The notes: a model not told the origin generated them from the sequence alone. A DNA stretch of 64,000 bases from Acidimicrobiales bacterium (GCA_039583695.1 JAVKSL010000009.1:118-64117), one strand, 5' to 3'; shown: positions 13,217-52,839, counted from the first letter of the stretch. Translations and numbers: made by a program.

Positions 13217-13277
13217 CGGGATCAGGCGAAGCGGTTACAGCTAGCCCGCTCCGACCATCTCAGGGGACCGGCGGACC

Positions 13278-22626: not shown

Positions 22627-23564
22627 ATGTCTGGCGATTCGATGTCTGGCGATTCGATGTCTGGCGATTCGATGTCTGGCGATTCGATGTCTGGCGAGTT
22701 CACAAGCTCGATCAGGACCTTGCGAAATGCCGGCCCCAGGTCGGGGCGGCGCAGCGCCAGCGCCACGGTTGCCCGAAGAAAGTCCAGCTTGTTACCGGTG
22801 TCGTAGCGCCCCTTCTGGAAGGTGTACCCATACACGGTCTGGGTCTGGAGCAGGATGCGAATGCCGTCGGTGAGCTGGATCTCGCCCCCGCTGCCCGGGC
22901 TCACCTCCGCCAGTGCGGCGAAGATCTCCGGGGTGAACACGTAGCGGCCCATCACCGCCAGGTTGGAGGGAGCCTCGGTGGGGAGAGGCTTCTCCACGAT
23001 GTCGTCGATGCGGACCAGGCTCGGCTCGACGGGCTCCACGTGCGCGCAGCCGTAGTTGGAGATCTGGGCGGGCTCCACGGCGCTGAGCGCGACCACTGAG
23101 CGCCCGTGGCGCCCGAAGGCGGACAGCATCGACTCCAAGACCTCCTCCTCCGGGTCCATGATGTCGTCGGCGAGCAGGACCACGAAGGGCTCGCTGCCGA
23201 CGTGCTGGGCCGCGATGGAGATGGCGTGGCCAAGCCCTTTTGGCTCGCGCTGGCGCACGTAGTGGATGTCGGCCATATCGGCGATCCGGCGCACCTGGGC
23301 CAGCTCCTCTGTCTTACCCGCGGCCAGGAGGTGGTGCTCCAGCTCGAAGGATTGGTCGAAGTGGTCCTCCAAGGCTCGCTTGCCCCGGCCGGTGATGATG
23401 AGGATGTCCCGGATGCCAACCCGTACCGCCTCCTCCACCACGTACTGGATGCAGGGGGTGTCGACGAGGGGAAGCATCTCTTTGGGCTGCGCCTTGGAAG
23501 CGGGTAGGAAGCGGGTCCCCAGTCCTGCGGCAGGAATGACTGCCTTGCGCACTGCGGTGGTCAC
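22623..23564 (-). CDS. galU: UTP--glucose-1-phosphate uridylyltransferase with SPDIE-repeat tail
   Basis: VRKAVIPAAGLGTRFLPASKAQPKEMLPLVD. The maximal ORF extends to ATG 23624, but that leaves only 7 bp to the divergent fmdB gene, so GTG 23564 is preferred. The C-terminus is (SPDIE)x4-5. Confidence 0.88.
   Translation of the reverse strand: MTTAVRKAVIPAAGLGTRFLPASKAQPKEMLPLVDTPCIQYVVEEAVRVGIRDILIITGRGKRALEDHFDQSFELEHHLLAAGKTEELAQVRRIADMADIHYVRQREPKGLGHAISIAAQHVGSEPFVVLLADDIMDPEEEVLESMLSAFGRHGRSVVALSAVEPAQISNYGCAHVEPVEPSLVRIDDIVEKPLPTEAPSNLAVMGRYVFTPEIFAALAEVSPGSGGEIQLTDGIRILLQTQTVYGYTFQKGRYDTGNKLDFLRATVALALRRPDLGPAFRKVLIELVNSPDIESPDIESPDIESPDIESPDI
22627..22697. repeat. 4.7 x 15-bp in-frame tandem repeat (atgtctggcgattcg) at the galU 3' end, abutting the moeA start
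   Basis: Perfect units at 22627-22641, 22642-22656, 22657-22671 and 22672-22686, then 11 nt of a fifth unit. The moeA ATG (22624-22626) lies immediately adjacent. Confidence 0.9.
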
Positions 23565-23631: not shown

Positions 23632-24105
23632 ATGCCGACGTACGAGTACGCCTGCACAACTTGTGGAATGCACATCGACGTGTTCCAGTCTTTTGCCGAA
23701 GCCCCGCTCACGACGTGTGCCAGCTGCGGAGGGGACCTGCGCAAGGTCTTCTCCCCGGTGGGCATAGCCTTCAAGGGCACCGGCTTCTACCGCAACGACA
23801 GCCGGGCCAGTGCCGGGGCCTCCAAGGCGGGGGCGGTCAAGGGTTCGGGGTCCGGCTCCGGCGACGGTGGGTCCGCCGGGTCCGGCTCCGGCGACGGTGG
23901 GTCCGCCGACGGTGGGTCCGCCGGGTCCGGGTCCGGCGACGGTGGGTCGGCCGGATCGGGCTCGGGCCCCGCCAAGGCAGGTGGCACCAACGGCAGGAGC
24001 GCCAGAGGAGGCGACTCCAGCTCTGGCGGGTCAAACGGCAGCGTATCCAAGACACCAGGCACCCGGTCCTCGGAGTCAGGGACCAAGAGCGCCATCTCCA
24101 AGTAG
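23632..24105 (+). CDS. FmdB-family zinc-ribbon protein with Gly/Ser-rich repetitive tail
   Basis: MPTYEYACTTCGMHIDVFQSFAEAPLTTCASCGGDLRKVFS (CxxC..CxxC), then about 100 aa of G/S/D-rich low complexity. Confidence 0.88.
   Translation: MPTYEYACTTCGMHIDVFQSFAEAPLTTCASCGGDLRKVFSPVGIAFKGTGFYRNDSRASAGASKAGAVKGSGSGSGDGGSAGSGSGDGGSADGGSAGSGSGDGGSAGSGSGPAKAGGTNGRSARGGDSSSGGSNGSVSKTPGTRSSESGTKSAISK
23848..23952. repeat. imperfect 30-bp tandem repeat in the fmdB tail
   Basis: gggtccggctccggcgacggtgggtccgcc at 23848-23877 and 23878-23907, a half unit, then a variant at 23923-23952. Encodes GSGSGDGGSA. Confidence 0.8.
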
Positions 24106-24196: not shown

Positions 24197-25555
24197 TCAG
24201 GCGCCGCTGAGGCTCACGTCCGCAATCGCTAGGGTCACCCCGGCGGCAATGCCGGGACCCCACTCGAGGTCGCCCCCGACTGCCACCACGTCTCGCAGCA
24301 TCCGCTGGATCGTCGAGGCTATGGTGACCTCCCGGACCGGCTCAGCCAAGCTCCCGTCCCGGATCATGAGTCCCTCGGCGCCAACCGAGAAGTCCCCGCT
24401 GATCGGGTTCACCCCCGAATGCACTCCCGTGATCGACTGGACCAGCATCCCCTCACCCACGGCCGCCATGACCTCGGCCTGCGACAACGCGCCCGGCTGG
24501 AGCGACAGTGCCTGGCACCCAACCCCGGGCGCGCTGCGAAACCCACCCCTCACCGCCGAGGCGGTAGAGGCCTTCCCGGCCCTCCGTCCAGCGTAGGAGT
24601 CGTAGACGAACCCGCGGAGCACGCCGTCGGAGATGAGCACGTTGCGACGGCAAGCCAGGCCCTCGCCGTCATGCGTGCTAGCGCCGAAGGCCGCGGGGTC
24701 GGTGGGGTCGTCGATGAGGGTGAGCGTGCCCACCCCCACCGATTCGCCCAGCCGGTCGGCGAACAGGGAGCGCCCCTTCTCGACGGACTCTCCCGAGAGG
24801 GTCCCCGCCAGGATCCCCAGCAGCGTCGTCGTCACCCGCCGGTCCAGGACCACGGTGAGCCGCCCCGAAGCAGCCTTGCGCGCCCCCAGCATCCGTGTGG
24901 ATCGCTCCACCGCCTCGCTCGCTGCGCGTGCCAGGTCAAGGTGCCCCGGGCCCCGGCCCACGGTGTAACCGCTGGCAGTCTGGGTCTCCTCGCCCTCCCC
25001 GGCGATGGCAGAGGCAGCCAGGTAGCAGCCGGTCCCCCTGGAGGTGACGGCTATGCCTGTCGTGCTGGCAATGGCCGCCTCCCCGGAGCCGTCCCCGTAG
25101 TCAGCCGACTGGACCGCGCGGATGCGGCCATCGCCGCGTCTGACGGCCGCCTCCAGCTCCAGCGCCATGGCCACCTTGGCCTCGGTCGCCAGTGAGGCCA
25201 GCTCGTCGGACCAAAGGTCCAGTGGCGCCGCCGCCACCCCGTCTGGTCCAGTCAGGCCGACGTGTGGATCGGGGGTGGCGAAGGCGGCATTGTCCCGAGC
25301 CTCGGCGAGCGTCTCGGCGAGCACGTCATCGGCGAGCGAGCCGGCGTAGGCAAAGCCCTGGCGCCGGCCGAGAAGGACCCGGATGCCCACGCCCGAGGAC
25401 TCCGCGGACGAAAGGTACTCCACCTCGCCCTCGTAAGCCCGGATGTCGGTGCTTCGGGAACGAGAGACGTACGCCTCCACCCCCTCGCCGTCTCGTGCCC
25501 AGCCCACAATGCGCTCGGCGATGGCCGCCAGCTCCGCGCAGCTGCCCTCAGGCAC
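24197..25555 (-). CDS. pmbA: TldD/PmbA-family metalloprotease, PmbA (TldE)-like subunit
   Basis: 452 aa with PmbA_TldD family features (...GVNPISGDFSVGAEGLMIRDG...). No HExxxH. Paired with tldD directly upstream. Confidence 0.85.
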   Translation of the reverse strand: MPEGSCAELAAIAERIVGWARDGEGVEAYVSRSRSTDIRAYEGEVEYLSSAESSGVGIRVLLGRRQGFAYAGSLADDVLAETLAEARDNAAFATPDPHVGLTGPDGVAAAPLDLWSDELASLATEAKVAMALELEAAVRRGDGRIRAVQSADYGDGSGEAAIASTTGIAVTSRGTGCYLAASAIAGEGEETQTASGYTVGRGPGHLDLARAASEAVERSTRMLGARKAASGRLTVVLDRRVTTTLLGILAGTLSGESVEKGRSLFADRLGESVGVGTLTLIDDPTDPAAFGASTHDGEGLACRRNVLISDGVLRGFVYDSYAGRRAGKASTASAVRGGFRSAPGVGCQALSLQPGALSQAEVMAAVGEGMLVQSITGVHSGVNPISGDFSVGAEGLMIRDGSLAEPVREVTIASTIQRMLRDVVAVGGDLEWGPGIAAGVTLAIADVSLSGA

Positions 25556-25589
25556 CGGCCGTCATCCCGCGATGGCGGCGCAGCCGCCC

Positions 25590-27023
25590 TCAGGCACCGG
25601 CCGTGCCCCCTACCGTCACTCCGGTAATCCGCAGGGTCGGCTGCCCGCAGCCCACCGGCACCGACTGGCCGTCCTTGCCGCAGGTGCCGGGGCACATGGC
25701 AAAGTCGCTGGCCACCACGTCGATCCGGCTCAGCACGTCGGGGCCGTTGCCGATCAGGTTGGCGTCGCGCAGGGGCTCGGTGATGTGGCCCCCCTCGATC
25801 AGATACGCCTCGGTCATGCCGAACACGAAATCACCCGTGGCGGTGTTCACCTGTCCCCCACCCAGCTTTGCCACGTAGACCCCGTAAGGGGTCTGGGCGA
25901 CCACTTCCTCGGGGTCCTCGGCGCCCGCCAGCAAGAAGGTGTTGGTCATGCGCACCATCGGCAGATGCTGGTAGCTCTGGCGGCGCCCGTTGCCCGAGGA
26001 AGCCCGGCCCTCCTGGTGCGCCCGCAGCCAGTCCCACATGTAATCGGTGAGCACCCCGTTCTCGATCAGCACGCTGCGCTGGGCCGGGCGCCCCTCGTCG
26101 TCCACTGCGCAGGTGCCCCACTCGCGCCCCACCGTGCCGTCGTCCACCAGGGTAACCAGCGGGCTGGCCACCGCCTCGCCCACCCGTCCGGTGTACACCG
26201 AGGAGTCCTTGACTATGTGGTCCGCCTCCAAGCCATGCCCGCAGGCCTCGTGAAACAGGATGCCCCCGGTGCCCCCCTTGATCACCACCGGCAGCACACC
26301 GCTCGGGGCCGGGCGCGCCGACAGCTTGGCGACAGCTCGCCGGGCCGCCTCCCGGGCCACCCACTCCACGTCCACCCCGCCGCCAACCGCCGGGTCGAAC
26401 AGCTCGAAGCCGACTGTGTTGGCCACCGACTCGAAACCGCTCTGCATCCCGGTATCGCCCACCGCCACGCACGACACCGCCAGCCTGGTCCGCACCTGGT
26501 CGTCGCCCGCCAGCAACCCGTCACTGTTGGCCACCATCATCCGCCGGTGGCTGTCGCCGTAGGCGACCGAGACCTGGCGGATCGACCCCCCCGCCGAGCG
26601 GGCCGCTTCGTCGGCGCGCAAAAGCAGCTCCACCTTGGAAGCCTTGGCCACGTCGCTCGGGTACACGGTGACCTCGTCCGAGGCCAGCCTCCTGTCCGAC
26701 GGGCTCCCGAGCGCCACGCTGCGCTGGCCCCCTTGCTTACCTCGCGCGACCGCCGCGGCAGCTTCGGCAGCTCTGAGCAGCCCGGGCTCAGAGAGGTCCG
26801 CGGTGTGCGCAAAGCCTGTCGTCTCCCCCACCACCACGCGGATCCCGGCCCCACGGTCGCGCCCCGAAGCCAGCTCCTCCACCCTTGTATCGTCGAGCGA
26901 GGCCGACGTAGCCCGTCGGTCCTCCGCGAACAGCTCGGCGAAGTCCCCGCCGTTGCGCAGGGCGCCAGCCAGGACGCGCTCGACGACACCAGGATCCACC
27001 AGGGGTGCGGCCTCGACCATCAC
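25590..27023 (-). CDS. tldD: metalloprotease TldD
   Basis: 477 aa with the HEACGHGLEADH metal-binding motif and ...GQVNTATGDFVFG.... Confidence 0.88.
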   Translation of the reverse strand: MMVEAAPLVDPGVVERVLAGALRNGGDFAELFAEDRRATSASLDDTRVEELASGRDRGAGIRVVVGETTGFAHTADLSEPGLLRAAEAAAAVARGKQGGQRSVALGSPSDRRLASDEVTVYPSDVAKASKVELLLRADEAARSAGGSIRQVSVAYGDSHRRMMVANSDGLLAGDDQVRTRLAVSCVAVGDTGMQSGFESVANTVGFELFDPAVGGGVDVEWVAREAARRAVAKLSARPAPSGVLPVVIKGGTGGILFHEACGHGLEADHIVKDSSVYTGRVGEAVASPLVTLVDDGTVGREWGTCAVDDEGRPAQRSVLIENGVLTDYMWDWLRAHQEGRASSGNGRRQSYQHLPMVRMTNTFLLAGAEDPEEVVAQTPYGVYVAKLGGGQVNTATGDFVFGMTEAYLIEGGHITEPLRDANLIGNGPDVLSRIDVVASDFAMCPGTCGKDGQSVPVGCGQPTLRITGVTVGGTAGA

Positions 27024-27024
27024 C

Positions 27025-27837
27025 TCACCGTAGCTGGCCTGGTCCAGCGAGCACCACCGTGTCCCCGGCCACCAGCGCCAGCTCGGACTCCGAGCGGACC
27101 TGCTCGCCGTTCAGCAACACCTCGCCACCCAGGCCCGCCCCTGCCAGATCCGCAGCGCCCCCCAGGGTGGAGGCCCTCACCAGGACCCGCCGGCCTGCGT
27201 GCTCCACCGCCACCTCGGGCTCGGGCCGCTCCAGCGCGGCAGCGTACTCGTCCGGACGGTTCAAGTTGTGGATCGACTCCAGCTCGGGGTCCAGCGCCGC
27301 CACCTGCAGGTCGCCCAGCAGCCACCTCTCATCGGCCAGCCGGGTGGTGCAGCGCTCGAAGAGCGCCGAGACCCGACCCCGACCTCCGGCCAGAAGAGCG
27401 TCGACCTCGGCCAGCACCGACGGCCGGTACGCAGCGGCGAGGGGCTGCTGAAAGCCCCCCACAACGGGGGCACACGCCTCGAATCCCCCAGAGCACCCCT
27501 CGAGCACCCGACGCACGAAGGCCGGATGGAGAAATGGAGCATCTGTGCAGCAGACAAATGTGCCCTCGCACCTCCCGCGCGCCGCCGCCAGGCCAGCGGC
27601 GATCCCCGCCAGCGGCCCCTTGCCGGGCACGGCGTCGGTCACCACCCGGGTCCCGGCAGGAAGGCCGCCGAGCACCTGTCCCGGCGCGGCCACCACGATG
27701 ACCGGACCGTCCACTGCGCGGGCGACGATGCTCACCACCCGGCCCAGCAGGGTCGAGCCGTGCCAGGGAAGCGACGCCTTGTCGAGCCCCATCCTCGACG
27801 AGCGGCCGCCCGCCAGCACTATCCCCGCGCTGATCAA
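27025..27837 (-). CDS. mobA: molybdenum cofactor guanylyltransferase MobA with ~75-aa C-terminal extension (possible beta-grasp MoaD/ThiS-like domain)
   Basis: TTG start. MISAGIVLAGGRSSRMGLDKA...GPLAGI...CCTDAPF...HNLNRPDEY covers a full MobA. The extra tail reads ...VLVRASTLGG...VLLNGEQVRSESELALVAGDTVVLAGPGQLR. 4-nt overlap with the crtZ stop. Confidence 0.8.
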   Translation of the reverse strand: MISAGIVLAGGRSSRMGLDKASLPWHGSTLLGRVVSIVARAVDGPVIVVAAPGQVLGGLPAGTRVVTDAVPGKGPLAGIAAGLAAARGRCEGTFVCCTDAPFLHPAFVRRVLEGCSGGFEACAPVVGGFQQPLAAAYRPSVLAEVDALLAGGRGRVSALFERCTTRLADERWLLGDLQVAALDPELESIHNLNRPDEYAAALERPEPEVAVEHAGRRVLVRASTLGGAADLAGAGLGGEVLLNGEQVRSESELALVAGDTVVLAGPGQLR

Positions 27838-28307
27838 CTCTCCGCCAGCACCCTCATTTGAGCGGGGACGATGGGAAACAGCATCCCGTACGGCTCACCC
27901 CCGTAGAGATGATGAAAGCGGTGAGCCTCCTTGAGGCGTTCGAGCACCGCCACCCGCGGCGGGCGACCAAGCCGGGCATGGATATAGACGTCGTGCACCA
28001 GGCCGTACGCCGCCCCATACGCAGTGACCCCGCAACCGACGCTCAGCAGTGCGCGGAGCGACGAGCGGCGGCTCCCCGCGGCCATGGCGAGCACAGTGAG
28101 GGTGGCGAAGATGCACGGGAAGGCGTCATTGGCCTCCAGCGCCCCTGCCCGAGCCTCAAGCTCGGCGCCCCTGCCCTCGTGGTGACTGCGGTGGGCCACC
28201 CAGCCCACCCCGTGCATCACCCAACGGTGAGCCGCGTAGGTCGCGGGCTCCATGGCCAAGAAGCTGCCGATCCCGGCCAGGACGCTCTGCCTCATCTCTC
28301 GGCCCAT
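27834..28307 (-). CDS. crtZ: beta-carotene hydroxylase (CrtZ-type)
   Basis: C-terminal 157 aa of ORF 27834..29216. His boxes AHRWVMHG..WVAHRSHH, LVHDVYIH and AHRFHH. Aligns by eye with recalled Pantoea CrtZ. Start coordinate taken from the ORF-track frame (MGREMRQ...). Confidence 0.8.
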   Translation of the reverse strand: MGREMRQSVLAGIGSFLAMEPATYAAHRWVMHGVGWVAHRSHHEGRGAELEARAGALEANDAFPCIFATLTVLAMAAGSRRSSLRALLSVGCGVTAYGAAYGLVHDVYIHARLGRPPRVAVLERLKEAHRFHHLYGGEPYGMLFPIVPAQMRVLAES

Positions 28308-28328
28308 GCTATCCCCGCCGGCCCGCCC

Positions 28329-28385
28329 TCGATCTCGCCAGCGGTTGCACTTAGGCCCCTTTTTGGGGTCAAACCGCGATAACTC
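28329..28385. repeat. 57-bp direct repeat, copy 1 (identical to 32232-32288)
   Basis: ctcgatctcgccagcggttgcacttaggcccctttttggggtcaaaccgcgataact. Lies just upstream of the crtZ start. Confidence 0.9.
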
Positions 28386-28498
28386 CAGCATCTCTGGTGC
28401 CGGACTTCCGAAGCGGTTGCACTTAGCCCGCTTCAACAGCCCTGCTGCTAGATCTCGCAAGCAGTCGTGCTTGGCCACCTGTGCGGTGTTGCCTGGGC

Positions 28499-29473
28499 TC
28501 AGGTAGGCCCACCGCCTTTGAGCGTCGCGCTGGCACGAGGTGCCAAAATCGGCACGGGCCGCCTCCCCCCCCAGCTCATCAGCTCCGCCTGGATACTCGG
28601 GTCGACAACATCGCGGACGCGATCTGCCAGCAGGTAGGCCGATAGGGCGACGAGGCCGACGGCGAGTCCCGGGATGACCATCAACCATGGATCGCGCGCC
28701 TGGTAAGGCTCGGCAGCGCTCAGCATGTTGCCCCACTCCGGGGTCGGCGGGTTGACGCCGAGCCCAAGAAACGAGAATGACGCCACGCCGAGCAGGGCTC
28801 CGGCAAAGTCGAGGCCGAAGTACACAGTTAGCTCTCCTCGTACCCCTCGAAGGATATGGTGAACCATGATCCGCCCCCGAGTCGACCCAATGGCTCGGGC
28901 CGCATCGACGAAAGGCTGTTCCCGCAGGATCAGCACTCGTGCCCGTACGACTCGTGCGTATCCAACCCACCACGTGCTCACCATCGCGAGTATCAGGTTT
29001 CCAAAGCCCGGCCCCAGCACCGCGAGGATCGCAAATGCCACGAGGATGGCGGGCAGTGCCATGACCGAGTCCACGATGCGCATCATGAGGGTGTCGAGGA
29101 TGCCGCCGGTATAGCCGACCACGACGCCTATACCCGATCCAACCACCGCCGCCGCGACGGCCACGACCAAGGCGGCCCCCAGGCTCGCCCTGCCGCCATA
29201 CAGGAGACGGCTCCACTCGTCCCGGCCGAGCCAGTCGGTGCCCAACAGGTGTGACCAGCTCGGACCCGCGAAGCGCTGCATCACGTCGACCCTGTCGGGG
29301 TTGTAAGTGTGCAGGTATGGAGCGAGGAGGACAACGCTCCCCACGAGGGTGAGCGCCCCCACTGCGAACGCTCCGTGCGGGCTGCCGACGACGAGCCTGA
29401 AGGCGCGCGGTCTCCTCAGACTGACTCCGCTGACAGCTAGCCGCGTTCTCCTGGCTGTTACGAGGACGCTCAT
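28499..29473 (-). CDS. ABC transporter permease (DppC/OppC-like)
   Basis: 324 aa. BPD-transporter EAA-type region ...AARAIGSTRGRIMVHHILRGV.... Confidence 0.85.
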   Translation of the reverse strand: MSVLVTARRTRLAVSGVSLRRPRAFRLVVGSPHGAFAVGALTLVGSVVLLAPYLHTYNPDRVDVMQRFAGPSWSHLLGTDWLGRDEWSRLLYGGRASLGAALVVAVAAAVVGSGIGVVVGYTGGILDTLMMRIVDSVMALPAILVAFAILAVLGPGFGNLILAMVSTWWVGYARVVRARVLILREQPFVDAARAIGSTRGRIMVHHILRGVRGELTVYFGLDFAGALLGVASFSFLGLGVNPPTPEWGNMLSAAEPYQARDPWLMVIPGLAVGLVALSAYLLADRVRDVVDPSIQAELMSWGGRRPVPILAPRASATLKGGGPT

Positions 29474-29475
29474 GG

Positions 29476-30420
29476 CTATCCGACCGCCCTGCCTAGCCGG
29501 ACGCGAGGGTCCAGCAGCGGGTACGCGAGGTCCACGGCAAGGTTGACGACAAGGAACACTGTCCCCGCCAGCAGGATGAGCCCCTGGATCAGCGGGTAGT
29601 CTCGATCAAAGATCGCGGTGATGGTGAGCTGCCCCACACCCGGCCACGCGAAGATCTCTTCGACGATCACGGTACCGAGCATCAATCCCCCTGTGATCGA
29701 GCCCGCGAGGGTGACCACGACGGCGAGCGCGTTCGGCAGGGCGTGGCGGATCACGACGGCCGGCGTCGAGAGCCCCTTGGCACGTGCGGTGCGCACGAAG
29801 TCCTCACCCAGCACCTCGAGCAGGCTGGCCCGCATCACCCGCGAAAGTACGGCCATCGGTCCAAGCGCAAGCGTAAGCACGGGCAAAAACATGCTCGCGA
29901 GCCCGGCCTCGCCGACTGCGGGCAGCACGCGCAGCCGTACCGCGAACACCTCGATCAGGAGCAGACCCACCCAGAAGGAGGGAAACGACGCACCGGTGAG
30001 CGACATCACGCGAACCAGGTGGTCAAGGGGTGAGTCCCGCCAGAGCGCGGCAACGCTTCCCAGGGCCACTCCGCCGAGCAACGCCAGAGCTGCCGCCGGC
30101 AACGCCAATCGCAAGGTCGTCGGCAGCCGGTGCCCGATCTCCGTGACCACCGGCTCCCCCGTAAAGAAGGACGTCCCGAGGTTCCCGGTCACCACCCCTC
30201 CGAGCCAGTGCTCGTAGCGGATCAGGAAGGGGGCATCCAGGCCCCATTTACGCTCCTGCTGGACCACCTGAGCGGCCGTAGGCTCCTGACCCAGGCGCTG
30301 GAACAGGTAGGTCTCGACGGGATTGCCCGGAGCCAACGTCGTAAGGCCATAGGTGGCCAGGCTGAGCAGGAACAGGCTCGGCACGAACAGCAGCACGCGC
30401 CGGAGCGCGTAGCGCCACAC
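29476..30420 (-). CDS. ABC transporter permease (DppB/OppB-like)
   Basis: 314 aa: MWRYALRRVLLFVPSLFLLS...FVRTARAKGLSTPAVVIRHALPNAL. Confidence 0.88.
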   Translation of the reverse strand: MWRYALRRVLLFVPSLFLLSLATYGLTTLAPGNPVETYLFQRLGQEPTAAQVVQQERKWGLDAPFLIRYEHWLGGVVTGNLGTSFFTGEPVVTEIGHRLPTTLRLALPAAALALLGGVALGSVAALWRDSPLDHLVRVMSLTGASFPSFWVGLLLIEVFAVRLRVLPAVGEAGLASMFLPVLTLALGPMAVLSRVMRASLLEVLGEDFVRTARAKGLSTPAVVIRHALPNALAVVVTLAGSITGGLMLGTVIVEEIFAWPGVGQLTITAIFDRDYPLIQGLILLAGTVFLVVNLAVDLAYPLLDPRVRLGRAVG

Positions 30421-30461
30421 GGCCGGCTAGAGCGCTGCCGGGCGACGCGGGAGGGTTCCGC

Positions 30462-32126
30462 TCATCGCAGGTACACCTTGGTCCAGAGCTGGCTGGTTTC
30501 CGACGGGTGCAGCACCAGCCCGCCGACGGCCGGCTTCATGGCTGCCACGCGCCACAGCCCGGCATAGGCGATGACGATCGCATCGTCATACACCAGGGTG
30601 TTCATGAGCTCGGCCGAGTCGTGCTGGATTGCCGGTATGTCGCTGGCCGCCAGCGTCGTCTCGACCATGGCGTCAAAGCTGGCCCCGGGAGCGACCAGCG
30701 CCACAGCCGGGGACTTGGACTTGCTGTAGAACCGCAGCACGGGAAGGAAAGACGGGTCGGCGTCGTTCTGGTTGGGCAGCTCAAGGTCGATGTCGAACTT
30801 GCCCGCCTTTCGCAGGGCGCCATAAGAGGTGAAGTCGGGAACGTTATGGATAATCACCTCTATGCCGACCGCCTTGGCGCTCGACTGGATGAACTCCATG
30901 GCGGACAGATCGATCGTGGGCCAGCCGATCAATGCAAGGGACACGCGGCGGCCTCCCTTCGAGCGGATACCATCCGTACCAGCTGCATAACCATTTTGGT
31001 CCAGCAGTGCCGTCGCTTTGGCGTGACTGTAGTGGACGGCCTTGATGTACTTGGCGGCGGATCCGAGCACCGACAGGGGGCCCATTGCCGGGTCAGGGGT
31101 GGCGACCCCGGTCAGGACGTCGGCCGCAAGCTTCTCGCGACTTATGCTCAACGACAGGGCATGACGTAGGACGGGGTCGGACAGCAGGTCGTACGGGGCT
31201 TTGCCATGTATGTTCAAATAGCCCAGCAGCGTCTCCCCGACGCCCGAGTGGGTAGATGTCAACCCATACGTCGAAAGGCTCGACAGGCTGCTCGGCGGCG
31301 GGTCTAGCGTCACATCGACCTGGCCTGAGCGCAGGGCGAGCAGGCGCGCGTTCGGATCGGAGACAAACAGGGCCGTGAGGGTCGAGACCATTGCCGGTTC
31401 TCCCCAGTAGTCCTGAACCCGGGTCACGACGACCTTCTCATTTGGGGTGTAACTGCTTGCTGCGAAAGGACCGGTGCCCATCCCGTCGCTCGCCTGCGTG
31501 CCGTTCTTCATGATGCTGAGCTCAGGGTGAACAATCTGCAGCGGCAGATGAAGATTGGGTCCGGTGGGAGTGATGTCGACCGTGAGGCTGTCGAGAGCGC
31601 GCGCCGAGTCGTGCCCGATCATCGAGAACGAGCCCTGACCCCCTTGGGCGGCTCTGTTCATGGAGTACACCACGTCGGCGGAGGTCAGGGGTGACCCGTC
31701 GTGGAAACGGACGCCCGGGCGCAGGTGGAACCGCCATGTGTTGGGCGGGCGCAACTCCCATGACCGTGCAAGCGACGGCACCAAGCCGAATGTGTGGTCC
31801 ATATGGATCAAGGTGTCGAAGACGTTGACGTTGAACGGATATTGGTAGGTCGTAGACTTGACGCCGCTGCCTGACTCGGGCCACTGATCGGCCCCCGCCG
31901 CCATGGTTAGTGTCCCAAGGGTTCCCTTTGGGTGCTCTGCCGCCGAGTGGGCAGCAGGAGAGCCTCCGCAGGCAGCCAGCACGCCACCCCCCACGGCGGC
32001 TGTCACGGCAAGCCGAGCTCCTTGCTTCAAGAACTCACGGCGTGACTGCACCTGACCCGAACCAAGACTGGTCTTCGACCCAAGGCCCACGGTGCTCTGC
32101 TTAGCCTCGGCGATGGCATCGGACAT
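30462..32126 (-). CDS. ABC transporter substrate-binding lipoprotein, family 5 (peptide/nickel type)
   Basis: 554 aa. Tat-like signal SRREFLKQGARLAV..VLAAC (lipobox) and SBP_bac_5-like body. Confidence 0.85.
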   Translation of the reverse strand: MSDAIAEAKQSTVGLGSKTSLGSGQVQSRREFLKQGARLAVTAAVGGGVLAACGGSPAAHSAAEHPKGTLGTLTMAAGADQWPESGSGVKSTTYQYPFNVNVFDTLIHMDHTFGLVPSLARSWELRPPNTWRFHLRPGVRFHDGSPLTSADVVYSMNRAAQGGQGSFSMIGHDSARALDSLTVDITPTGPNLHLPLQIVHPELSIMKNGTQASDGMGTGPFAASSYTPNEKVVVTRVQDYWGEPAMVSTLTALFVSDPNARLLALRSGQVDVTLDPPPSSLSSLSTYGLTSTHSGVGETLLGYLNIHGKAPYDLLSDPVLRHALSLSISREKLAADVLTGVATPDPAMGPLSVLGSAAKYIKAVHYSHAKATALLDQNGYAAGTDGIRSKGGRRVSLALIGWPTIDLSAMEFIQSSAKAVGIEVIIHNVPDFTSYGALRKAGKFDIDLELPNQNDADPSFLPVLRFYSKSKSPAVALVAPGASFDAMVETTLAASDIPAIQHDSAELMNTLVYDDAIVIAYAGLWRVAAMKPAVGGLVLHPSETSQLWTKVYLR

Positions 32127-32231
32127 GTCTCTTCCTCTCTCACGGGTCGCTGAGCTCGCTCCTCGGGGCCAATATATCTCAATTTGCTAGACAGAGAAGG
32201 TATAGATGCGCTTGACATATACTGATTGAGG

Positions 32232-32288
32232 CTCGATCTCGCCAGCGGTTGCACTTAGGCCCCTTTTTGGGGTCAAACCGCGATAACT
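32232..32288. repeat. 57-bp direct repeat, copy 2 (identical to 28329-28385)
   Basis: Same 57-mer. Includes the last 5 codons and stop of crtYd (gttatcgcggtttga on the minus strand). Confidence 0.9.
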
Positions 32289-32593
32289 TCGCTTGGCCGG
32301 CGCCGCTCCCAGGCGGCTATCGCCGAGGTGACCAGGGCAAAGCCGTATGCGAAGTCCTCGAGCGGGATCCCGGGCCAGAGTCGCGTCCCCAAAATCTGCG
32401 CGGGGTCATAGCTGACTATCGGATCGGAGGTCTTGGCCAGCCATCCATCGACGGCCACCTGGAAACCCGCCACTATCGCCAACGAGATCCAATAGGACCG
32501 GCGTCTGAAGATGCCGCTGCGCCACCACGCCGCCTCGCAGGCCACGACACCAGCAGCCGCACCGAGGGCCGCGACGGTGTACTCACGCATCAA
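32273..32593 (-). CDS. crtYd: lycopene cyclase domain protein (heterodimeric CrtYd-type)
   Basis: 106-aa membrane protein ...GIPLEDFAYGFALV... of the lycopene_cyc domain type. Overlaps its partner gene by 11 nt. Confidence 0.75.
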   Translation of the reverse strand: MMREYTVAALGAAAGVVACEAAWWRSGIFRRRSYWISLAIVAGFQVAVDGWLAKTSDPIVSYDPAQILGTRLWPGIPLEDFAYGFALVTSAIAAWERRRPSEVIAV

Positions 32594-32900
32594 AGATCCG
32601 CCGGACCGCCTCGAGGGTAAGGATGGCGCAGGTGGGGATCACCACAAAGAATGCCAGCTCCTCGACCGGCAGGTGCCCGGGCAGGTCCCACCCGGTGGTC
32701 GTGCGAGGGTTGAAGCTCCAGTGACCCCGGGCAATTGCCGCCAGGTCCCAGGCAACGAACACCGCCACCGTCGGGCCCAGCGCGCTTGCGAGCCGGACCG
32801 GCTGGCGCCAGACCTTCGCTCCCAGGCACGCTTCCAGGGGCGCGGTCACCGCGGCGCAGGCCGCCACCAGGCCCAGGTACTGGAATTGGGAGCGCCTCAT
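32583..32900 (-). CDS. crtYc: lycopene cyclase domain protein (heterodimeric CrtYc-type)
   Basis: 105-aa membrane protein ...LPVEELAFFVVIP... (PxEE-type motif). Confidence 0.75.
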   Translation of the reverse strand: MRRSQFQYLGLVAACAAVTAPLEACLGAKVWRQPVRLASALGPTVAVFVAWDLAAIARGHWSFNPRTTTGWDLPGHLPVEELAFFVVIPTCAILTLEAVRRIFDA

Positions 32901-40496: not shown

Positions 40497-41103
40497 GGTA
40501 GTATTTGCCCCTTGCGCTCTCAGCGCCGGCGGGTCAGAATGCAGGGGCAGTCAAGGAGCAGGACCCACTTCCCCTTGGTCGACAGCTATTCGGCGCTGGC
40601 AGGTCGCTGGCGCCGGGGACGGAGGTTGGGAACCTGGGCGTGGGCGAGGCCACAGCGGGGAGCTGGCGCTCGCCGCTGGTCAAGATCGAGCGATCGGTCC
40701 AATAGCGGGCGAAGGCGGCCTCGCTGGACATGGCCGCCCCGGGTGGTCCGGACGCCCTCCGGGGCCGAATCGACGAGGAGGTAGCCCGCTGGTCGGCCGA
40801 TCATGCCAGGGGGCTCCGTCCCTTCGACCTCGCCGACCCGGACCTCGTGGCCCTGCGGGTCTATCGCAACCTCGCCGGATATGGCCCGCTGGAGTCGCTT
40901 CTCGAGGATCCCGACGTCTGGGAGATCGCCGTGAACGGCCCCGAGGAAGATCTTCGTCCGGCGGCATACCGGTCGCTCGGGCTACCACGATGAGGCCTTC
41001 CACGACGACGACCACGTCCTGCGCATCCTCACCAAGATCGTCGATGACTCCACGGCCTCGCACCGCAAGCTCGACCCTGCCGAGGGCCTCCAGGACGCCC
41101 AGC
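40497..41103. repeat. diverged direct repeat, copy A (homologous to 58191-58792)
   Basis: Colinear by-eye alignment with the region upstream of and inside cpaF. Both copies end with caggacgcccagc. Confidence 0.85.
40640..41103 (+). pseudogene. cpaF/tadA-like ATPase, 5' fragment with in-frame stop and frameshift
   Basis: ...GEATAGSWRSPLVKIERSVQ*RAKAASLDMAAPGG...DPDVWEIAVNGPEE, then a frameshift, then ...SGYHDEAFHDDDHVLRILTKIVDDSTASHRKLDPAEGLQDAQ. TAG at 40703-40705 where the intact copy has GAG. 1-nt insertion near 40945. Confidence 0.85.
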
Positions 41104-41185
41104 AGTTCTGGCCCACGATCCGCAGCGGATCCCGCTCCGGGCAACAGGGGGCGAACGGCTGGCTGGGCCCTACTTGGGGATCTGC

Positions 41186-41519
41186 GTCGACAGCCAGAAA
41201 CGGGTGGCCCGCAGGCTCGAGAAGCACTCGCCACCGATCCGGTGCCGGCTGTTCGGTGGCTCGCGTCGCTCCGAGGCGAACAGCCTCCGCCTGCGCCTCC
41301 GCCTCGTCGAGGTCATCCACGGCAAGGTCGAGATGCATCTGCTTGGGCGCATCACCGCCAGGCCACGTCGGAGGTTCGTAGCCCTCGACCTGCACAGCGG
41401 CAAGCCATCCCCGGTCGGTCTTCACCGCGACGAACGCGTCGCTCGTGAAGGCAACCGCCCCGCCGAGCAGCTCGGCCCAGAACTCCCCGAGGATGCTCGG
41501 AGACGAGCAGTCAAACGCT
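41186..41519 (-). pseudogene. VOC/glyoxalase-family gene lacking a start codon
   Basis: Hand translation gives ...IAFDCSSPSILGEFWAELLGGAVAFTSDAFVAVKTDRGWLAAVQVEGYEPPTWPGGDAPKQMHLDLAVDDLDEAEAQAEAVRLGAT...RVLLEPAGHPFLAV. No ATG, GTG or TTG upstream before the junction with the sigma fragment. Confidence 0.55.
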
Positions 41520-42276
41520 ATGGACCCGGGCGAAACAGAAGATCGCCGCGGCGAAGGTGCCCTACCGGGTGCCCGAGGACAGCGACCTGCCCGAGCGGCT
41601 CGGCGACGTGCTGACGGTGCTGTTCCTCGTCTTCAACGAGGGCTACCTCGCCACGGGCGACGGCGATCCGGTTCGTGCCGAGCTCACCGACGAGGCCATC
41701 CGACTGACGCGGATCCTGCGCCAGTTGCTCCCCGAGGAGCCGGAGGTCGCCGGCCTGCTCGGACTACTGGTGCTCATCGAGGCACGGCGTGAGGCTCGTG
41801 TGCGCAACGGGCACCTGGTCCCCCTCGACGAGCAGGACCGCGCCGGCTGGGACCTTGCGCTGATCGCCGAGGGCCACGACCTGGTCCGCTGGTGCCTCGC
41901 CATCAACCGACCCGGCCGCTACCAGATCCTCGCCGCGATCAACGCCGTCCACACCGACGCCCCCACGGCGAGCGACACCGACTGGTCGCAGGTGGTCGCG
42001 CTCTACGACCAGCTGACCCGGCTCGATCCCTCACCGATCGTCGCGCTCAACCGCGCGGTCGCGATCGCCGAGCTCGACGGCCCGGGTGTCGCCCTCGCGC
42101 TGGTCGAGCGGCTGCCGCTCTCCGGCTACCACGCATGGCATGCCACTCGTGCCGAGATGCTCCGCAGGCTCGGCCGCAACGCCGAAGCAAGAAAGGCGTA
42201 CGACGCTGCGATCGCCGCCACCCAGAACTCCGCCGAACGCGCCTACCTGAGCACCAAGCGCGGCGAGCTGGGCTGA
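41515..42276 (+). pseudogene. ECF-type sigma factor with C-terminal TPR-like domain (COG4941-like), N-terminal half missing
   Basis: ...RAKQKIAAAKVPYRVPEDSDLPERLGDVLTVLFLVFNEGYLA...INAVHTDAPTASDTDWSQVVALYDQL.... The sigma region 2 and most of region 4 are absent. The reading frame is closed at 41446-41448. Confidence 0.65.
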
Positions 42277-42524
42277 GCTGAGTGGTCCCACGGTTCGGGT
42301 ATCTGGCCGACGGCACTCGTCGTTCACACCGATGACGCTGTCCCAGTCCGCCAAGTAGCTGGACCGGGTCGCAGCGCTCGCGACCATCTCGCTACGGCAC
42401 GAACGATAGTTCGGTCACCGTTGACCCAAAGGTGGTTGCTCGTACGAGGCGGTCGGTGTACCGGCGACGAGTCCGATAATTGGCACCCGGTTTCTTCTGA
42501 CCGGCTCGCCTACGTAGAGTCAGC

Positions 42525-43073
42525 ATGGTGGGGTCCCCGCAGACGCTGAGTGAAACCGACCGACGTCGTGTCGCTGCATGGGCCGCTGACTGTGCCCAGC
42601 GGGTTCTCGGGCTGTTCGAGGTTGAGGCGCCAGATGATGGTCGCCCTCGGGCTCTCATCGCCCGGACCCGCGCGTTCGCCCAAGGAGAGCTGAACACGGC
42701 GGAGGAGATCCGCCGTCGGTTTGTCGGTGGCGTCGGTGCTGGTGATGTGAAGTCTCTCGCCGCAGCGGCCGCTGCCCGAGCCGCCGGACAGGCCGTCGCC
42801 ATCTGCCATATGGGCGCGCATGCACTGGGGGCCGCCGCTTATGCCGCCAAGGCTGCCAGCCTTGGGGACCCGAACCGGCCAGAAGCCGTCGAAGACGAGG
42901 TCCGCTGGCAGCTCGACCACATGTCTGCGGAGGTTCGCGCCGCTCTGCGAACCCTTCCGCCTATCGGTCAGAACTCGTCGGGTCCCCTTGGGCCAGGGCT
43001 TCTCGCATCGGGCCAACTCGGCATGATCGTCCGCCACCTCCAAGCGGGTCTCAGCCAGCTCGAACAAAACTGA
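42525..43073 (+). CDS. conserved hypothetical alpha-helical protein (recalls putative immunity-protein, Imm5-like family)
   Basis: 182-aa ORF: LSETDRRRVAAWAADCAQRVLGLFE...DGRPRALIARTRAFAQGEL...AAAAARAAGQAV.... The family assignment is from memory only. Confidence 0.55.
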   Translation: MVGSPQTLSETDRRRVAAWAADCAQRVLGLFEVEAPDDGRPRALIARTRAFAQGELNTAEEIRRRFVGGVGAGDVKSLAAAAAARAAGQAVAICHMGAHALGAAAYAAKAASLGDPNRPEAVEDEVRWQLDHMSAEVRAALRTLPPIGQNSSGPLGPGLLASGQLGMIVRHLQAGLSQLEQN

Positions 43074-43212
43074 CCCGAGGTCCCAGAACCGGGGTGTCGA
43101 GCGACACGCTCGATGAACATCGACGAGGTGTCTTCCGGAAGTGGTGGTGTCGAACACCTCGACGCCCACCACGCTCGGGTCGGCCCGCACTGCGATCCGG
43201 CTACGAGCGCGC

Positions 43213-43746
43213 TCATCGTGTTGGCCACCAGCCGTGCTGCCCCGGGTAGGGGCCTGGACGACCGCGACTCCTCTCTCCGTGGCGGCAGGATTCAGGGGAC
43301 GGAGGGTGCCCAGAGCTCGCTGGCGTCGCCAGCGGCGAGGCAGTCGCGATAAGCGCTGATCTTGTAGTGTAGTCGATGAGCTTGAGGTTCTCTTCGATCT
43401 TGTCAAGCTTGGCTTTGACGAGGGCGCGGTGGGACTCCATGAGGGCGCGTCGTTCGTCTTCGTTCCCACTCCCGACGGCGACGAGCGCGGCGTAGCGCCG
43501 GATCGTCCTTATGGGCATGCCGGTGGTGCGTAGCCTCGTGCAGATCTCGATCCATTCGAGGTGCGCCTCGTGGTAGCGGCGCCGACCGGCGTGGTTGCGT
43601 TCCACTGTGGTCACGATCAAGCCGGCCCGCTCGTAGTAGCACAGGGTGTGGACGCTGACTCCGCTGCGGGCCGCCGCCTCACCGATGGTCAGGGCCTCCC
43701 CTGGTTCTGGCCGGGGGAGTGTTTGCGGAGCCTTGACTTCTGGCAC
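43213..43746 (-). CDS. MerR-family transcriptional regulator (3' end altered by a 5-bp duplication)
   Basis: LTIGEAAARSGVSVHTLCYYERAGLI is the MerR HTH. A tandem gtagt-gtagt at 43364-43373 shifts the frame. Without it the ORF would end ...LIDYKISAYRDCLAAGD...VP* at 43292. Confidence 0.8.
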   Translation of the reverse strand: MPEVKAPQTLPRPEPGEALTIGEAAARSGVSVHTLCYYERAGLIVTTVERNHAGRRRYHEAHLEWIEICTRLRTTGMPIRTIRRYAALVAVGSGNEDERRALMESHRALVKAKLDKIEENLKLIDYTTRSALIATASPLATPASSGHPPSPESCRHGERSRGRPGPYPGQHGWWPTR

Positions 43747-44108
43747 GCTCTAAATCGTACGCTTCGCCTCATGGGCATGCCCTGGCTCCCAAGCTCGCTT
43801 CGCCAACGGGACTTCGCGCTGTTCTGGGCGCGTTTCTGGACCCTTCAGGCCTACCGAGCAGCGGACGGCGAGGATGGGCGGCGAAGAACTCGGCGGCCAC
43901 GTCCGGCGTAGAGCTTGAGGTACCGGCCGGCGGTCAGTCCCGGCGATGTTCCCAGCGGAACTAGCGCGCCGCGGCCAGCATCCCGGCGGCGCCACACGCC
44001 GCCATGATCCCCACGTCGCCCCACGCGTAGCCACCGCGGAACGGGAGCACCGACGCCACCTGGGTGAGCAGCAAGTCTCGCTGACCCGTCCCGCCGACAG
44101 GCGGATCG

Positions 44109-44564
44109 CTATCCGGACGCTGGCTCTGACACCCGCGCTGGCAGGTCGAGGAGCCGGCGGAGAGTGCTGTCTCCGACCTTGCTGGCGAAGTGCCGCCCTA
44201 CGGCGTCGACGAAGGCCGGTTGGGCGGCGTCGAACACCTTGCACCCCTCGGGGCTGAGGGTGGCGTAGACGGTCCGTCGGTCGCTCGGGTCGCGCTCGCG
44301 GGCGAGCAGGCCCCGCTCCTCAAGCCGGTCGACGGTCTTGGTCACCGCGCTCTTGGCGACACCGAGCGCCCCAGCGATCTCGACCATCCGCAGCCGCCGC
44401 CCCGCTGCCATAGCCACCTGGCAGAGCACCAGGTTCTCGGCGAGGGTCAGGCCGACCTTGGCCTGCAGGTCCCGGTTGATCAGGACCCGGACCCGATCGA
44501 CGACATCGCAGAGCCCCATCCACGCCTGGAGCCCCTCGGGCCGTTCGTTCGACGCATTGGACAC
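44109..44564 (-). CDS. MarR-family transcriptional regulator
   Basis: 151-aa winged helix: ...LRMVEIAGALGVAKSAVTKTVDRLEERGLLARERDPSDRRTVYATLSPEG. Confidence 0.88.
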   Translation of the reverse strand: MSNASNERPEGLQAWMGLCDVVDRVRVLINRDLQAKVGLTLAENLVLCQVAMAAGRRLRMVEIAGALGVAKSAVTKTVDRLEERGLLARERDPSDRRTVYATLSPEGCKVFDAAQPAFVDAVGRHFASKVGDSTLRRLLDLPARVSEPASG

Positions 44565-44841
44565 GACTCCCAGCCTACCTCATGGGTTGACAGGAGAACG
44601 ATTTTCCCTATAGTGTATGCTAGATAACCATCGTCTGGAGAACGGAGTGTGAGATGGATGCAGACCACACAGCGCCCTGGAGGCCGCTTGAGCGGGCAGG
44701 ACGCGCCGCTGCCCGATACCAGGCGAGGCGGGATGAGATCGAGCCGCTCATCGCACTCCTGGTCGACATCGCCGTTCTCGGTGCCTTGCTGGCCAGATGC
44801 GGCCCCACCCGCGGGCCGCAAACCCCGGTGGGGTGCTAAAG

Positions 44842-45213
44842 ATGAGCGTGTTCTCTCCAGCCGAGCTCGCCTACCTGGCCGAGCGCCGCCTCGGTCGCCT
44901 CGCCACCATCGACCGGGGCGGCCGGCCACACGTGGTGCCCCTCGGCTGGTCCTACAACCCGGACCTCGACACCATCGACGTCGGAGGGCGGGACTTCTCC
45001 CGGACCAAGAAGTTCCGTAACGCCCGGGCCAACCCCAAGGTCACCCTGGTGATCGATGACGTCCTGCCTCCCTGGCGGCCACGGGCGGTCATGGTCCGCG
45101 GGGACGCCGAGACCCTCGATGCGGCCACCGGCCACGGCGGCGAGGTGCTCGGGCCGATCATCCGCATCCACCCCGTTGAGGTCCTGAGCTGGGGCCTCGA
45201 CGCCGGCTCCTAG
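44842..45213 (+). CDS. PPOX-class (F420-dependent type) oxidoreductase
   Basis: ORF 44797..45213 trimmed to ATG 44842: MSVFSPAELAYLAERRLGRLATIDRGGRPHVVPLGWSYN...KFRNARANPKVTLVIDD. Confidence 0.85.
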   Translation: MSVFSPAELAYLAERRLGRLATIDRGGRPHVVPLGWSYNPDLDTIDVGGRDFSRTKKFRNARANPKVTLVIDDVLPPWRPRAVMVRGDAETLDAATGHGGEVLGPIIRIHPVEVLSWGLDAGS

Positions 45214-45248
45214 ACCCAAACCCGCTCCTCACCACAAAAGGAGCTTCC

Positions 45249-45884: not shown

Positions 45885-45914
45885 ACGCCGAAGGCGTCGA
45901 GGATCTCCCGCCGG

Positions 45915-46013
45915 AAGGTCGTGGGCCGCGAGCAGGTCTGGCTCGGTGAGGGCTCGCCACACCGCTTCAGGCGGGTGCTTGAGGAATGCGTCGGTGTCGA
46001 TGGCGTCGGTCAA
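45915..46013 (-). pseudogene. SRPBCC (Aha1/START-like) gene, only the first ~30 codons recognisable
   Basis: TTG 46013 overlaps the arsR stop. LTDAIDTDAFLKHPPEAVWRALTEPDLLAA matches the N-terminus of the family (compare the intact paralog at 47657..48145). The sequence afterwards is unrelated. Confidence 0.5.
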
Positions 46014-46711: not shown

Positions 46712-46896
46712 ACCTGTACAATAGGTAAGCAAGGTCTTACGTGTCAAGGGTACCTCCGTCATGCTCCAGGCCCCCGATCGCCTCGCGGCCTCGCTGTGCG
46801 GCACTGCGGGCGACGCCGACCTGCAGACAACTCGACAAACGCTCACGTGCCTCGCCACGATGCCCAACGACATTGCCTGACCCCAATGGCCCGTCC

Positions 46897-52811: not shown

Positions 52812-52839
52812 GCCCGCACCGGGAGCGAGTCCAGCTGGC

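Follow-up and report, generated by a model that had tools for sequence, protein, structure and literature searches.

A transporter cassette within a crtYd-crtZ repeat array of an uncultured Acidimicrobiales bacterium, and the origin of the 57-bp direct repeat around it

How did a transporter operon come to lie between two carotenoid genes that adjoin each other in related bacteria, and does the perfect 57-bp direct repeat found on either side of it record the event? The question is raised by a 64,000-nucleotide stretch of DNA from an Acidimicrobiales bacterium (GCA_039583695.1, JAVKSL010000009.1:118-64117; hereafter the window, numbered from its first nucleotide), in which a cassette encoding parts of an ATP-binding cassette (ABC) importer separates the lycopene cyclase subunit gene crtYd from the carotene hydroxylase-like gene crtZ. 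A sequence-only reading of the window had proposed that the cassette was inserted with duplication of the junction, or was gained by illegitimate or site-specific recombination. In the comparisons described here the cassette appears as an old, derived insertion, and the perfect repeat pair is best explained as a recent product of the tandem array in which the cassette lies.

The window contains exactly two copies of the 57-mer CTCGATCTCGCCAGCGGTTGCACTTAGGCCCCTTTTTGGGGTCAAACCGCGATAACT, without a mismatch between them, where the chance expectation for such a pair is 0. Copy 2 lies at 32232-32288, as had been reported, and copy 1 at 28328-28384, one base away from the 28329-28385 given for it; the start-to-start spacing measures 3904 and not 3903. 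The genes of this part of the window all lie on the minus strand (Table 1). The crtYd TGA stop codon (32273-32275) is indeed inside copy 2, together with the last four complete codons (V-I-A-V) and one base of the fifth from the end, rather than the five codons counted earlier. Copy 1 was placed about 20 bp upstream of crtZ, and it is 20 nt from the first in-frame ATG (28307) and 32 nt from the ATG at 28295 that aligns with the crtZ start of relatives.

The repeat pair is real. Logan unitigs L001, L098 and L099, which derive from two sequencing runs, are exact substrings of the window (L001 corresponds to 37176-32259 and L098 to 32261-28355) and end precisely k-1 = 30 nt into each copy of the repeat, the 3907 nt of L098 being made up of 3847 unique bases plus 30 and 30. 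Since the unitigs end k-1 inside the copies, they show the behaviour of a true repeat and not of a mis-join, and the structure is no assembly artefact. A mis-join or collapsed bubble that put a transporter contig between the crt genes might be suspected where, as here, the assembly is evidently of metagenome type and the 57-mer makes short-read graphs branch. Such an error is scarcely credible, given that 57 nt is less than a read length, so that reads span the repeat, that the unitigs of the two independent runs match exactly and break exactly where they should, and that in the sister lineage a single contig from the Joint Genome Institute (JGI), L016, crosses both junctions at a locus where the flanking repeat is only 15-22 nt.

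The gene order of relatives identifies the cassette as the derived state. CrtZ homologs place the window in the Acidimicrobiales; crtYd adjoins crtZ in the related loci L002-L005, whose CrtZ is 87-88% identical, and in L006-L008, and it abuts crtZ in a third close lineage, L100. The order in the closest relatives is Metallophos, GT87, Peptidase_S51, divergent DUF1707 and crtYc-crtYd-crtZ-NTP_transf_3-TldD-PmbA. Relatives with contiguous crtYcd-crtZ span 81-88% CrtZ identity and have no gene for a solute-binding protein (SBP) or permease nearby. A scan of species-representative genomes, a set without the species of the window and without the L002 lineage, yielded 77 loci, about 45 of them with contiguous CrtYc-CrtYd-CrtZ and none with an SBP or permease gene near crtZ. 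With the three genes contiguous in about 45 related loci, the cassette is read as an insertion into a conserved crtYc-crtYd-crtZ unit that split crtYd from crtZ; this much of the sequence-only reading stands, and the uninterrupted crtYcd-crtZ order is indeed present in relatives.

That the duplication arose with the insertion, on the other hand, is not supported. The cassette-free loci L002-L005 have a 181-bp crtYd-crtZ gap that holds three tandem copies of the same crtYd-tail element, AGCTATCGCGGTT[T/A]G[C/G]CCCCAAAAAGCGCGCTAAG... (Tandem Repeats Finder gives a period of 71 x 2.6 for the L002 array), so that 2.6-3 tandem units are already present without a cassette. Neither crtYd-tail units nor the cassette are found in L006 and L100, and with units in L002-L005 the origin of the array falls in the ancestor that the window lineage shares with L002. 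On L016 and L017 lies the gene of P0121, the SBP homolog closest to that of the window (91% identical). The order on L016 is crtYd tail, two units, cassette, half unit and crtZ, and the cassettes of L016 and the window align with 91.7% identity over 3879 nt, from the left unit to the right core. Window, L016 and L017 have in common the left junction GATCGAG/CCT...TCAGTATATGT and the right junction GGGCTGTTG/AAGCG.GCTAAG (a slash marks the border). In a unit-level alignment a short repeat built on the core AAGSGSSCTAAGYGC lies immediately on either side of the cassette in both lineages; the boundary repeat is perfect over 15 nt in L016, and in the window it reads AAGGGGCCTAAGTGCAACCGCT versus AAGCGGGCTAAGTGCAACCGCT, 22 nt with 2 mismatches, extendable by our count to 25/34. 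Copy 1 of the 57-mer is not at this border, from which it is separated by a partial unit of about 49 nt (28385-28433), and it sits one unit (72 nt) past that boundary; what the border carries instead is the older, imperfect repeat, which does not support duplication of the junction at insertion. In silico excision between the two cores leaves a two-unit array collinear with that of L002, with 83% identity and one 62-nt unit fewer. The number of units differs among the window, L016 and L002. All three cores of the window read CTAAGTGCAACCGCT, and those of L016 and L002 read CTAAGCGC...; such lineage-specific core variants suggest that the units have been homogenised within each genome, by concerted evolution.

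The age of the cassette leads to the same result. Between the window and L016 the number of synonymous substitutions per synonymous site (dS) is 0.27 for the SBP gene, 0.14 for the gene of the permease PermB and 0.17 for that of PermC, and between the window and L002 it ranges from 0.18 to 0.48 over 14 flanking genes, with a median of about 0.32. The L016 unit is about 85% identical to the 57-mer of the window. Copies dating from the insertion would be expected to differ at about 8-18 sites, against 0 observed, and the probability of 57/57 identity is 3e-4 to 1e-8 for d = 0.14-0.32. The cassette has thus diverged about as much as its flanks, yet the copies are identical, and the 57-mer does not qualify as an insertion scar. 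By these distances the cassette appears to have been resident at the site roughly since the window and L016 lineages split, perhaps for somewhat less. With a cassette of that age, identity over 57/57 positions points to recent gene conversion or re-duplication within the array, which best explains the perfect pair.

The cassette is also polymorphic. One JGI sample (3300054703) yielded both L016, which has the cassette, and L004, which lacks it; on the two sides of the variable part their sequences are 100% identical, over 125 nt and 89 nt. L016 has the look of a bubble's second branch in the assembly, so both alleles coexist in one metagenome. A cassette between direct repeats and conserved genes would be both deletable and replaceable, and hence both alleles could coexist in one population.

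The repeat is not a dispersed one, and no mobility gene accompanies the cassette, the latter as the sequence-only reading had it. Away from this junction, neither the window nor 1.2 Mb of DNA from related Acidimicrobiales contains the unit core or the junction core; a metagenome scan for the unit core gave 7 matches, all of them chance matches without flanking similarity, and a scan of viral contigs for the unit gave 0 matches. The cassette encodes only the SBP and two permeases. No transposase or recombinase was found in it, in the 22 kb syntenic with L002, among ten other open reading frames (ORFs) of the window or among 20 ORFs scanned in the roughly 17 kb that are specific to the window. 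Searched with the whole cassette, plasmids gave only short matches of 67-71% to a conserved permease motif.

Taken together, these observations make it probable, with real room left for other histories, that the cassette entered an unstable minisatellite long ago and that homologous recombination now exchanges or removes it, in the manner of a minimal mobile element. A small tandem array, confined to this locus and lineage, would have been seeded by the crtYd 3' end and the bases that immediately follow it. An operon of nik/opp type with three genes would then have been inserted within the array, in an ancestor shared by the window lineage and its sister (about 87% nucleotide identity), bringing the genes of an SBP and two permeases and its own AT-rich leader and no ATPase gene. 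The point of entry would have been the core AAGSGSSCTAAGYGC or a site adjoining it, the probable mechanism being illegitimate or microhomology-assisted recombination, and the short flanking repeat that is now imperfect would have been left by this event. Of the recombination routes named at the outset, an insertion by a probably illegitimate event is thereby retained, and a site-specific one is not favoured, as no recombinase was found among the ORFs scanned and no attC or dif-like site by inspection. Later, the number of units may have changed by slippage or unequal crossing-over, and gene conversion may have homogenised the units within each genome, the perfect 57-bp pair being a recent product of it. 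RecA-type recombination between units could delete the cassette, and homologous recombination in the flanks could replace or restore it.

Several points weigh against this history. The identity between L016 and L004 covers only the 125 and 89 nt, and the ends of bubble contigs are identical by construction. The three-unit array of L004 and L002 is no one-step deletion product of L016, for the inter-unit spacers differ, and by this comparison several rearrangements would separate the two alleles. The order of events might be either of two, with the array preceding the insertion or having been seeded by the insertion's target duplication. The dS values of the cassette are at the low end of the flank range, which may reflect transfer between the two lineages once they had separated, or else a preferred site that received the cassette twice independently. 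The genome beyond the window may contain more copies of the unit, and within the window a near-twin of the core hairpin is found at 13231-13257 (minus strand). Gene conversion, excision and read-through transcription, finally, are processes that we infer from sequence.

Among the other explanations, the one to be taken most seriously, unlikely as it is, is a Campbell-type integration, in which a circle of the cassette plus one unit recombined homologously with the unit downstream of crtYd, recently and in the window lineage. Excision via the flanking units in a related genome could supply the circle, and perfect direct repeats on both sides would be the outcome. The 57/57 identity in spite of an old cassette family would be accounted for in this way, repeat-cassette-repeat and an empty site plus a circle are equally compatible with the de Bruijn topology of L001 and L098, both alleles coexist in the sister population, and empty sites carrying units exist. 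However, copy 1 is set apart by a partial unit whose spacer is orthologous to the L002 inter-unit spacer, for which a single crossover in the 57-mer is insufficient; the divergence of the cassette from that of L016 tracks the host genes, as in a lineage resident and not a new arrival; and no circular form was observed. The target-site duplication that had been the first explanation, made in a single event by transposition or another insertion, has in its favour that a direct repeat flanks foreign-looking DNA and that the ancestral gene order comes back once the insert and one copy are deleted. We nevertheless regard it as very improbable, since there is neither a transposase nor a terminal inverted repeat among the inverted repeats listed, since units are tandem already where no cassette is present, and since copy 1 is not adjacent to the insert boundary and the copies are more alike than so old an insert allows. 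To our knowledge, 57 bp is also far beyond known target-site duplications.

A site-specific module, in which the units or the core hairpin would serve as att, attC or dif-like sites for a recombinase encoded elsewhere (an integron integrase, Xer or another) and the transporter operon would be a true mobile gene cassette, is improbable as well. The same core AAGSGSSCTAAGYGC bounds the cassette on both sides in two lineages and can form a stem-loop of 7-9 bp, the presence/absence polymorphism has apparently precise borders, and, as in integron cassettes and pdif modules, the cassette has no mobility gene. Against this stand the lack of an integrase or transposase in the cassette, the 22 syntenic kb and the 20 window-specific ORFs; the absence, by inspection, of RYYYAAC/GTTRRRY attC cores and of an 11-6-11 dif-like palindrome; the failure of the core to recur anywhere else in 1.2 Mb of related DNA; the occurrence of the cassette homologs L018, L019 and L020 without such sites or flanking repeats; and a hairpin whose sequence differs between lineages, with a fold z-score of -1.1 for the 57-mer. 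We would be equally surprised to find that the units, or the stem-loop AAGCGG-GCTAAGTGCAA-CCGCTT, are recombination sites, or that a repeat-templated cycle of excision and re-integration runs via a circle. Were it so, the Acidimicrobiales would have a new route that shuttles promoter-bearing operons at a defined intergenic site without a cassette-borne mobility gene.

The preferred history, an old insertion in an unstable array, can be set beside known systems. An insertion sequence (IS) or transposon with target duplication was rejected, as there is no transposase in the insert or the syntenic flanks and no terminal inverted repeat, the repeat measures 57 bp and not 2-14 bp, and about 49 nt lie between copy 1 and the insert. 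Integron cassettes and the pdif modules of Acinetobacter have no recombinase of their own and are bounded by short repeated sites with hairpin potential. The cassette of this locus resembles them in these respects, and differs in that no IntI or other recombinase was found nearby, in that attC cores and 28-bp dif-like sites are missing, in that it has three genes and its own leader instead of one promoterless ORF, and in that the sites do not recur elsewhere. An integron cassette was dismissed because the R''/R' cores RYYYAAC...GTTRRRY are absent from the unit by inspection and no tyrosine recombinase is among the ORFs scanned, a scan that was not exhaustive, and a module of the Xer type (pdif, or integrative mobile elements exploiting Xer, IMEX) because inspection, with no dif model, revealed no 28-bp 11-6-11 dif-like site. 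The only palindromic features are GCGGTT/AACCGC, 25 nt apart, and short hairpins.

The array has a closer likeness in the intercistronic variable number tandem repeats (VNTRs) of the mycobacterial interspersed repetitive unit (MIRU) type, reportedly described in mycobacteria by Supply and colleagues in 1997. Like them, it consists, in an actinobacterium, of tandem units of 60-72 bp (MIRU-like units being of 40-100 bp) in a single orientation, set between co-oriented genes that belong to one operon; the stop codon of the upstream gene falls within the first unit, and the copy number varies between close relatives, with the window, L016 and L002 all differing. MIRUs form a family dispersed over dozens of loci, whereas the present unit is at one junction only, in the window, the 1.2 Mb of relatives and the metagenome and viral scans, and no small coupled ORF structure has been demonstrated here. 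We know of no MIRU array that harbours a gene cassette.

With respect to the cassette, the parallel is with the minimal mobile elements (MMEs) of Neisseria, which the available accounts outline as variable content between conserved flanking genes without mobility genes (Saunders & Snyder 2002; PMC3787668, PMC1797815). The three-gene cassette likewise has no mobility genes, in itself or in the syntenic flanks, lies between conserved genes and is present or absent among the closest relatives, so that content varies between the same flanks in L016 versus L004 and in the window versus L002. Exchange by homologous recombination in the flanks is plausible. Natural transformation and exchange through the flanks, which belong to the MME concept, would be putative in the Acidimicrobiales; the locus shows presence or absence and no alternative cassettes, although L026 has different genes at the junction; and it is set among tandem repeats, a feature that the MME definition does not include. 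The locus would thus resemble an MME-like site inside a MIRU-shaped intercistronic VNTR without genome-wide dispersal.

Other crtYd-crtZ junctions are also occupied. In L026 (7150-8000) reverse-strand ORFs lie between the two genes, one of them PPOX/F420-type-like by eye, and in L029 (7537-7998) unrelated tandem arrays of 86 bp x 2.1 and 54 bp x 1.9 are found in a 514-bp gap. The junction seems to be a recurrent soft spot across Acidimicrobiia lineages. The window itself has many short, often perfect tandem repeats (22627-22697, 14010-14073, 23848-23953, 4440-4539 and 7332-7389), including ATGTCTGGCGATTCG x 4.7, 100% identical, at a MoeA/NTP_transferase gene junction; a PBP gene has a 9-bp x 7.1 array at its 3' end, and the genome appears generally prone to tandem duplication. 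The window-specific region of about 17 kb (41103-58293) is absent from the otherwise syntenic L002 contig and lies between the Pirin-side genes and the T2SSE ATPase gene. It encodes DUF6596/TPR, MerR, MarR, PNPOx-like, DUF6069, AHSA1-like and MDMPI_N/DinB-like proteins as well as methyltransferase, PIN-domain, AAA_33 and LigB-like proteins.

The AAGCGGGCTAAGTGCAACCGCT core at the 3' boundary of the cassette can form the stem-loop ttGAAGCGG-GCTAAGTGCAA-CCGCTTCgg (28409-28437). The near-twin at 13231-13257 reads cGGAGCGG-GCTAGCTGTAA-CCGCTTCg, and both have a stem of 7-9 bp and an 11-nt loop GCTARSTGYAA. Each is located just downstream of a minus-strand gene, in one case a CT398-like/Zn-ribbon gene and in the other PermC. 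No third copy was found in the window or the related loci, and the GCTARSTGYAA stem-loop may represent a small intergenic hairpin peculiar to this genome. A conserved riboswitch or attenuator was considered and rejected, as the hairpins differ between lineages (CCCCAAAAAGGGG versus CGCGCTAAGCGCG). A scan of 27.5-33.2 kb with Rfam models returned one chance match and no RNA family, and the RNA fold of the 57-mer (z = -1.1) reveals no significant structure.

The intervening DNA was said to encode only an SBP and two permeases, and profile matches bear this out, with a family-5 SBP and two BPD_transp_1 permeases. The best NCBIfam matches of the three proteins are nickel/cobalt-type NikA/Opp5A, NikB/Opp2B and NikC/Opp2C, and all scores are under the equivalog cut-offs (NikA 173/600, NikB 329/350 and NikC 256/300 bits). 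The cassette thus resembles the NikABCDE/Opp family-5 importers in having a family-5 SBP and NikB- and NikC-like permeases, with nickel/cobalt models on top, and differs from them in scoring below the equivalog cut-offs and in having no ATPase gene alongside. The N-terminus of the SBP has the twin-arginine motif SRREFLK and a lipobox-like LAAC. The closest homologs of the SBP are 91%, 79% and 59% identical. The second of these belongs to L018, a plain three-gene operon between an unrelated nucleotidyltransferase gene and prs (the neighbouring NTP_transf_3 gene was considered as the counterpart of the mobA-like gene of the window and rejected), and the third to L019 and L020, three-gene operons near glyoxalase, flavodoxin and MerR genes. 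Around the homologs on L018, L019 and L020 there are no flanking repeats and no core, and those on L018 and L019 have no conserved ends. No ATPase gene (NikD/NikE) is present in the cassette or in the homologous contexts L016, L018, L019 and L020; the importer presumably relies on an ATPase whose gene lies elsewhere. An SBP and two permeases without an ATPase recur in all four genomic contexts and look like a conserved nik/opp-type module.

The base composition of the cassette is foreign-looking, the GC content being 0.495 in the leader, 0.646 in the cassette and 0.70-0.71 in the flanks, and that at third codon positions (GC3) 0.77-0.84 in the cassette versus 0.83-0.90. The leader had been called AT-rich and promoter-like. 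It is AT-rich, and a scan of 32127-32231 for the sigma-70 consensus gave no match. The orthologous leader of L016 has a perfect TTGACA-17-TATAAT (265-293), where the window reads CTTCTC-17-TATATT; a perfect sigma-70 consensus is unusual for a genome of about 70% GC. On this orthology the window leader may function as a promoter. A terminator scan found none at either 57-mer copy and predicted none between PermC and crtZ, and for this reason crtZ is probably transcribed by read-through from crtYc and/or the cassette promoter. The gene is now apart from the cyclase genes, and imperfect read-through, if it occurs, could shift the balance of hydroxylated carotenoids.

Table 1. Features of the crtYc-mobA-like region of the window, in descending order of position.
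Feature	Position	Strand	Evidence and remarks
crtYc, lycopene cyclase subunit, 105 aa	32583..32900	-	TIGR03462 CarR_dom_SF 6.7e-20; PF18916 weak; synteny with relatives
crtYd, lycopene cyclase subunit, 105 aa, ATG start	32273..32590	-	PF18916 2e-10; TIGR03462 5.7e-17
57-mer copy 2, first unit of the crtYd-tail array	32232..32288	-	holds core AAGGGGCCTAAGTGCAACCGCT (32244-32265), directly before the cassette side
Cassette leader, AT-rich, GC 0.495	32127..32231	-	TATATT, -10-like, 32171-32176; decayed -35 CTTCTC, 32194-32199
Family-5 SBP, 554 aa, NikA/Opp5A-like	30462..32126	-	PF00496 9e-65; NF045468 6e-51, below cut-off
ABC permease (PermB), NikB/Opp2B-like, 314 aa	29476..30420	-	PF00528 and PF19300; NF045470 329 bits vs cut-off 350
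ABC permease (PermC), NikC/Opp2C-like, 324 aa	28499..29473	-	PF00528; NF045474 256 bits vs cut-off 300
Degenerate older copy of the 3' half of the unit, CCAAGCACGACTGCTTGCGAGATCTAG	28448..28474	-	20/27 to CTAAGTGCAACCGCTGGCGAGATCGAG; conserved in L016
Partial repeat unit, 3' boundary of the cassette	28385..28437	-	core AAGCGGGCTAAGTGCAACCGCT at 28412-28433; then spacer orthologous to L002 inter-unit spacer
57-mer copy 1, last full array unit, non-coding	28328..28384	-	100% identical to copy 2
crtZ-like carotene hydroxylase, FA_hydroxylase family	27834..28307	-	PF04116 8e-10, above cut-off; start 28307, or 28295 as in relatives
MobA-like nucleotidyltransferase	27025..27837	-	PF12804; MobA models below cut-offs; overlaps crtZ stop; kept in relatives (synteny)

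The carotenoid genes around the cassette are of familiar types. CrtYc and CrtYd are encoded side by side, with about 100 aa and one CarR domain each and TIGR03462 above its cut-off for both, and together they have the features of a heterodimeric lycopene cyclase CrtYc/CrtYd. The CrtYd protein with the ATG start matches Logan contig L001 exactly, and a look-up of the protein with a TTG start gave no match. The alignment of the CrtZ-like protein has invariant H27, H32, H39, H42, H43, H105, H110, H129, H132 and H133, and its homologs are labelled beta-carotene 3-hydroxylase by JGI; the fold, the histidine boxes and the linkage to carotenoid genes are those of a CrtZ beta-carotene hydroxylase, the predicted activity. 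The mobA-like gene, the downstream operon partner of crtZ, is followed by tldD and then pmbA. The crtYc-crtYd-crtZ genes are away from crtE/crtB/crtI and are co-oriented and tightly packed with the mobA-like gene and tldD/pmbA (24197-32900), an arrangement kept in L002 and partly in L022.

The locus represents a well-resolved but essentially ordinary repeat-associated polymorphism of gene content in uncultured Acidimicrobiales. The 57-mer breaks short-read assemblies exactly here, and it makes the locus a simple marker of cassette gain and loss in metagenomes, to be followed with junction reads or by polymerase chain reaction across crtYd-crtZ. A perfect direct repeat around foreign DNA is not necessarily an insertion scar; in the present case it is younger than the insert and would result from concerted evolution of the array. 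For the biology of these bacteria, the locus offers a natural example of a small accessory operon in an unstable intergenic minisatellite, polymorphic in a population without the machinery of a mobile element.

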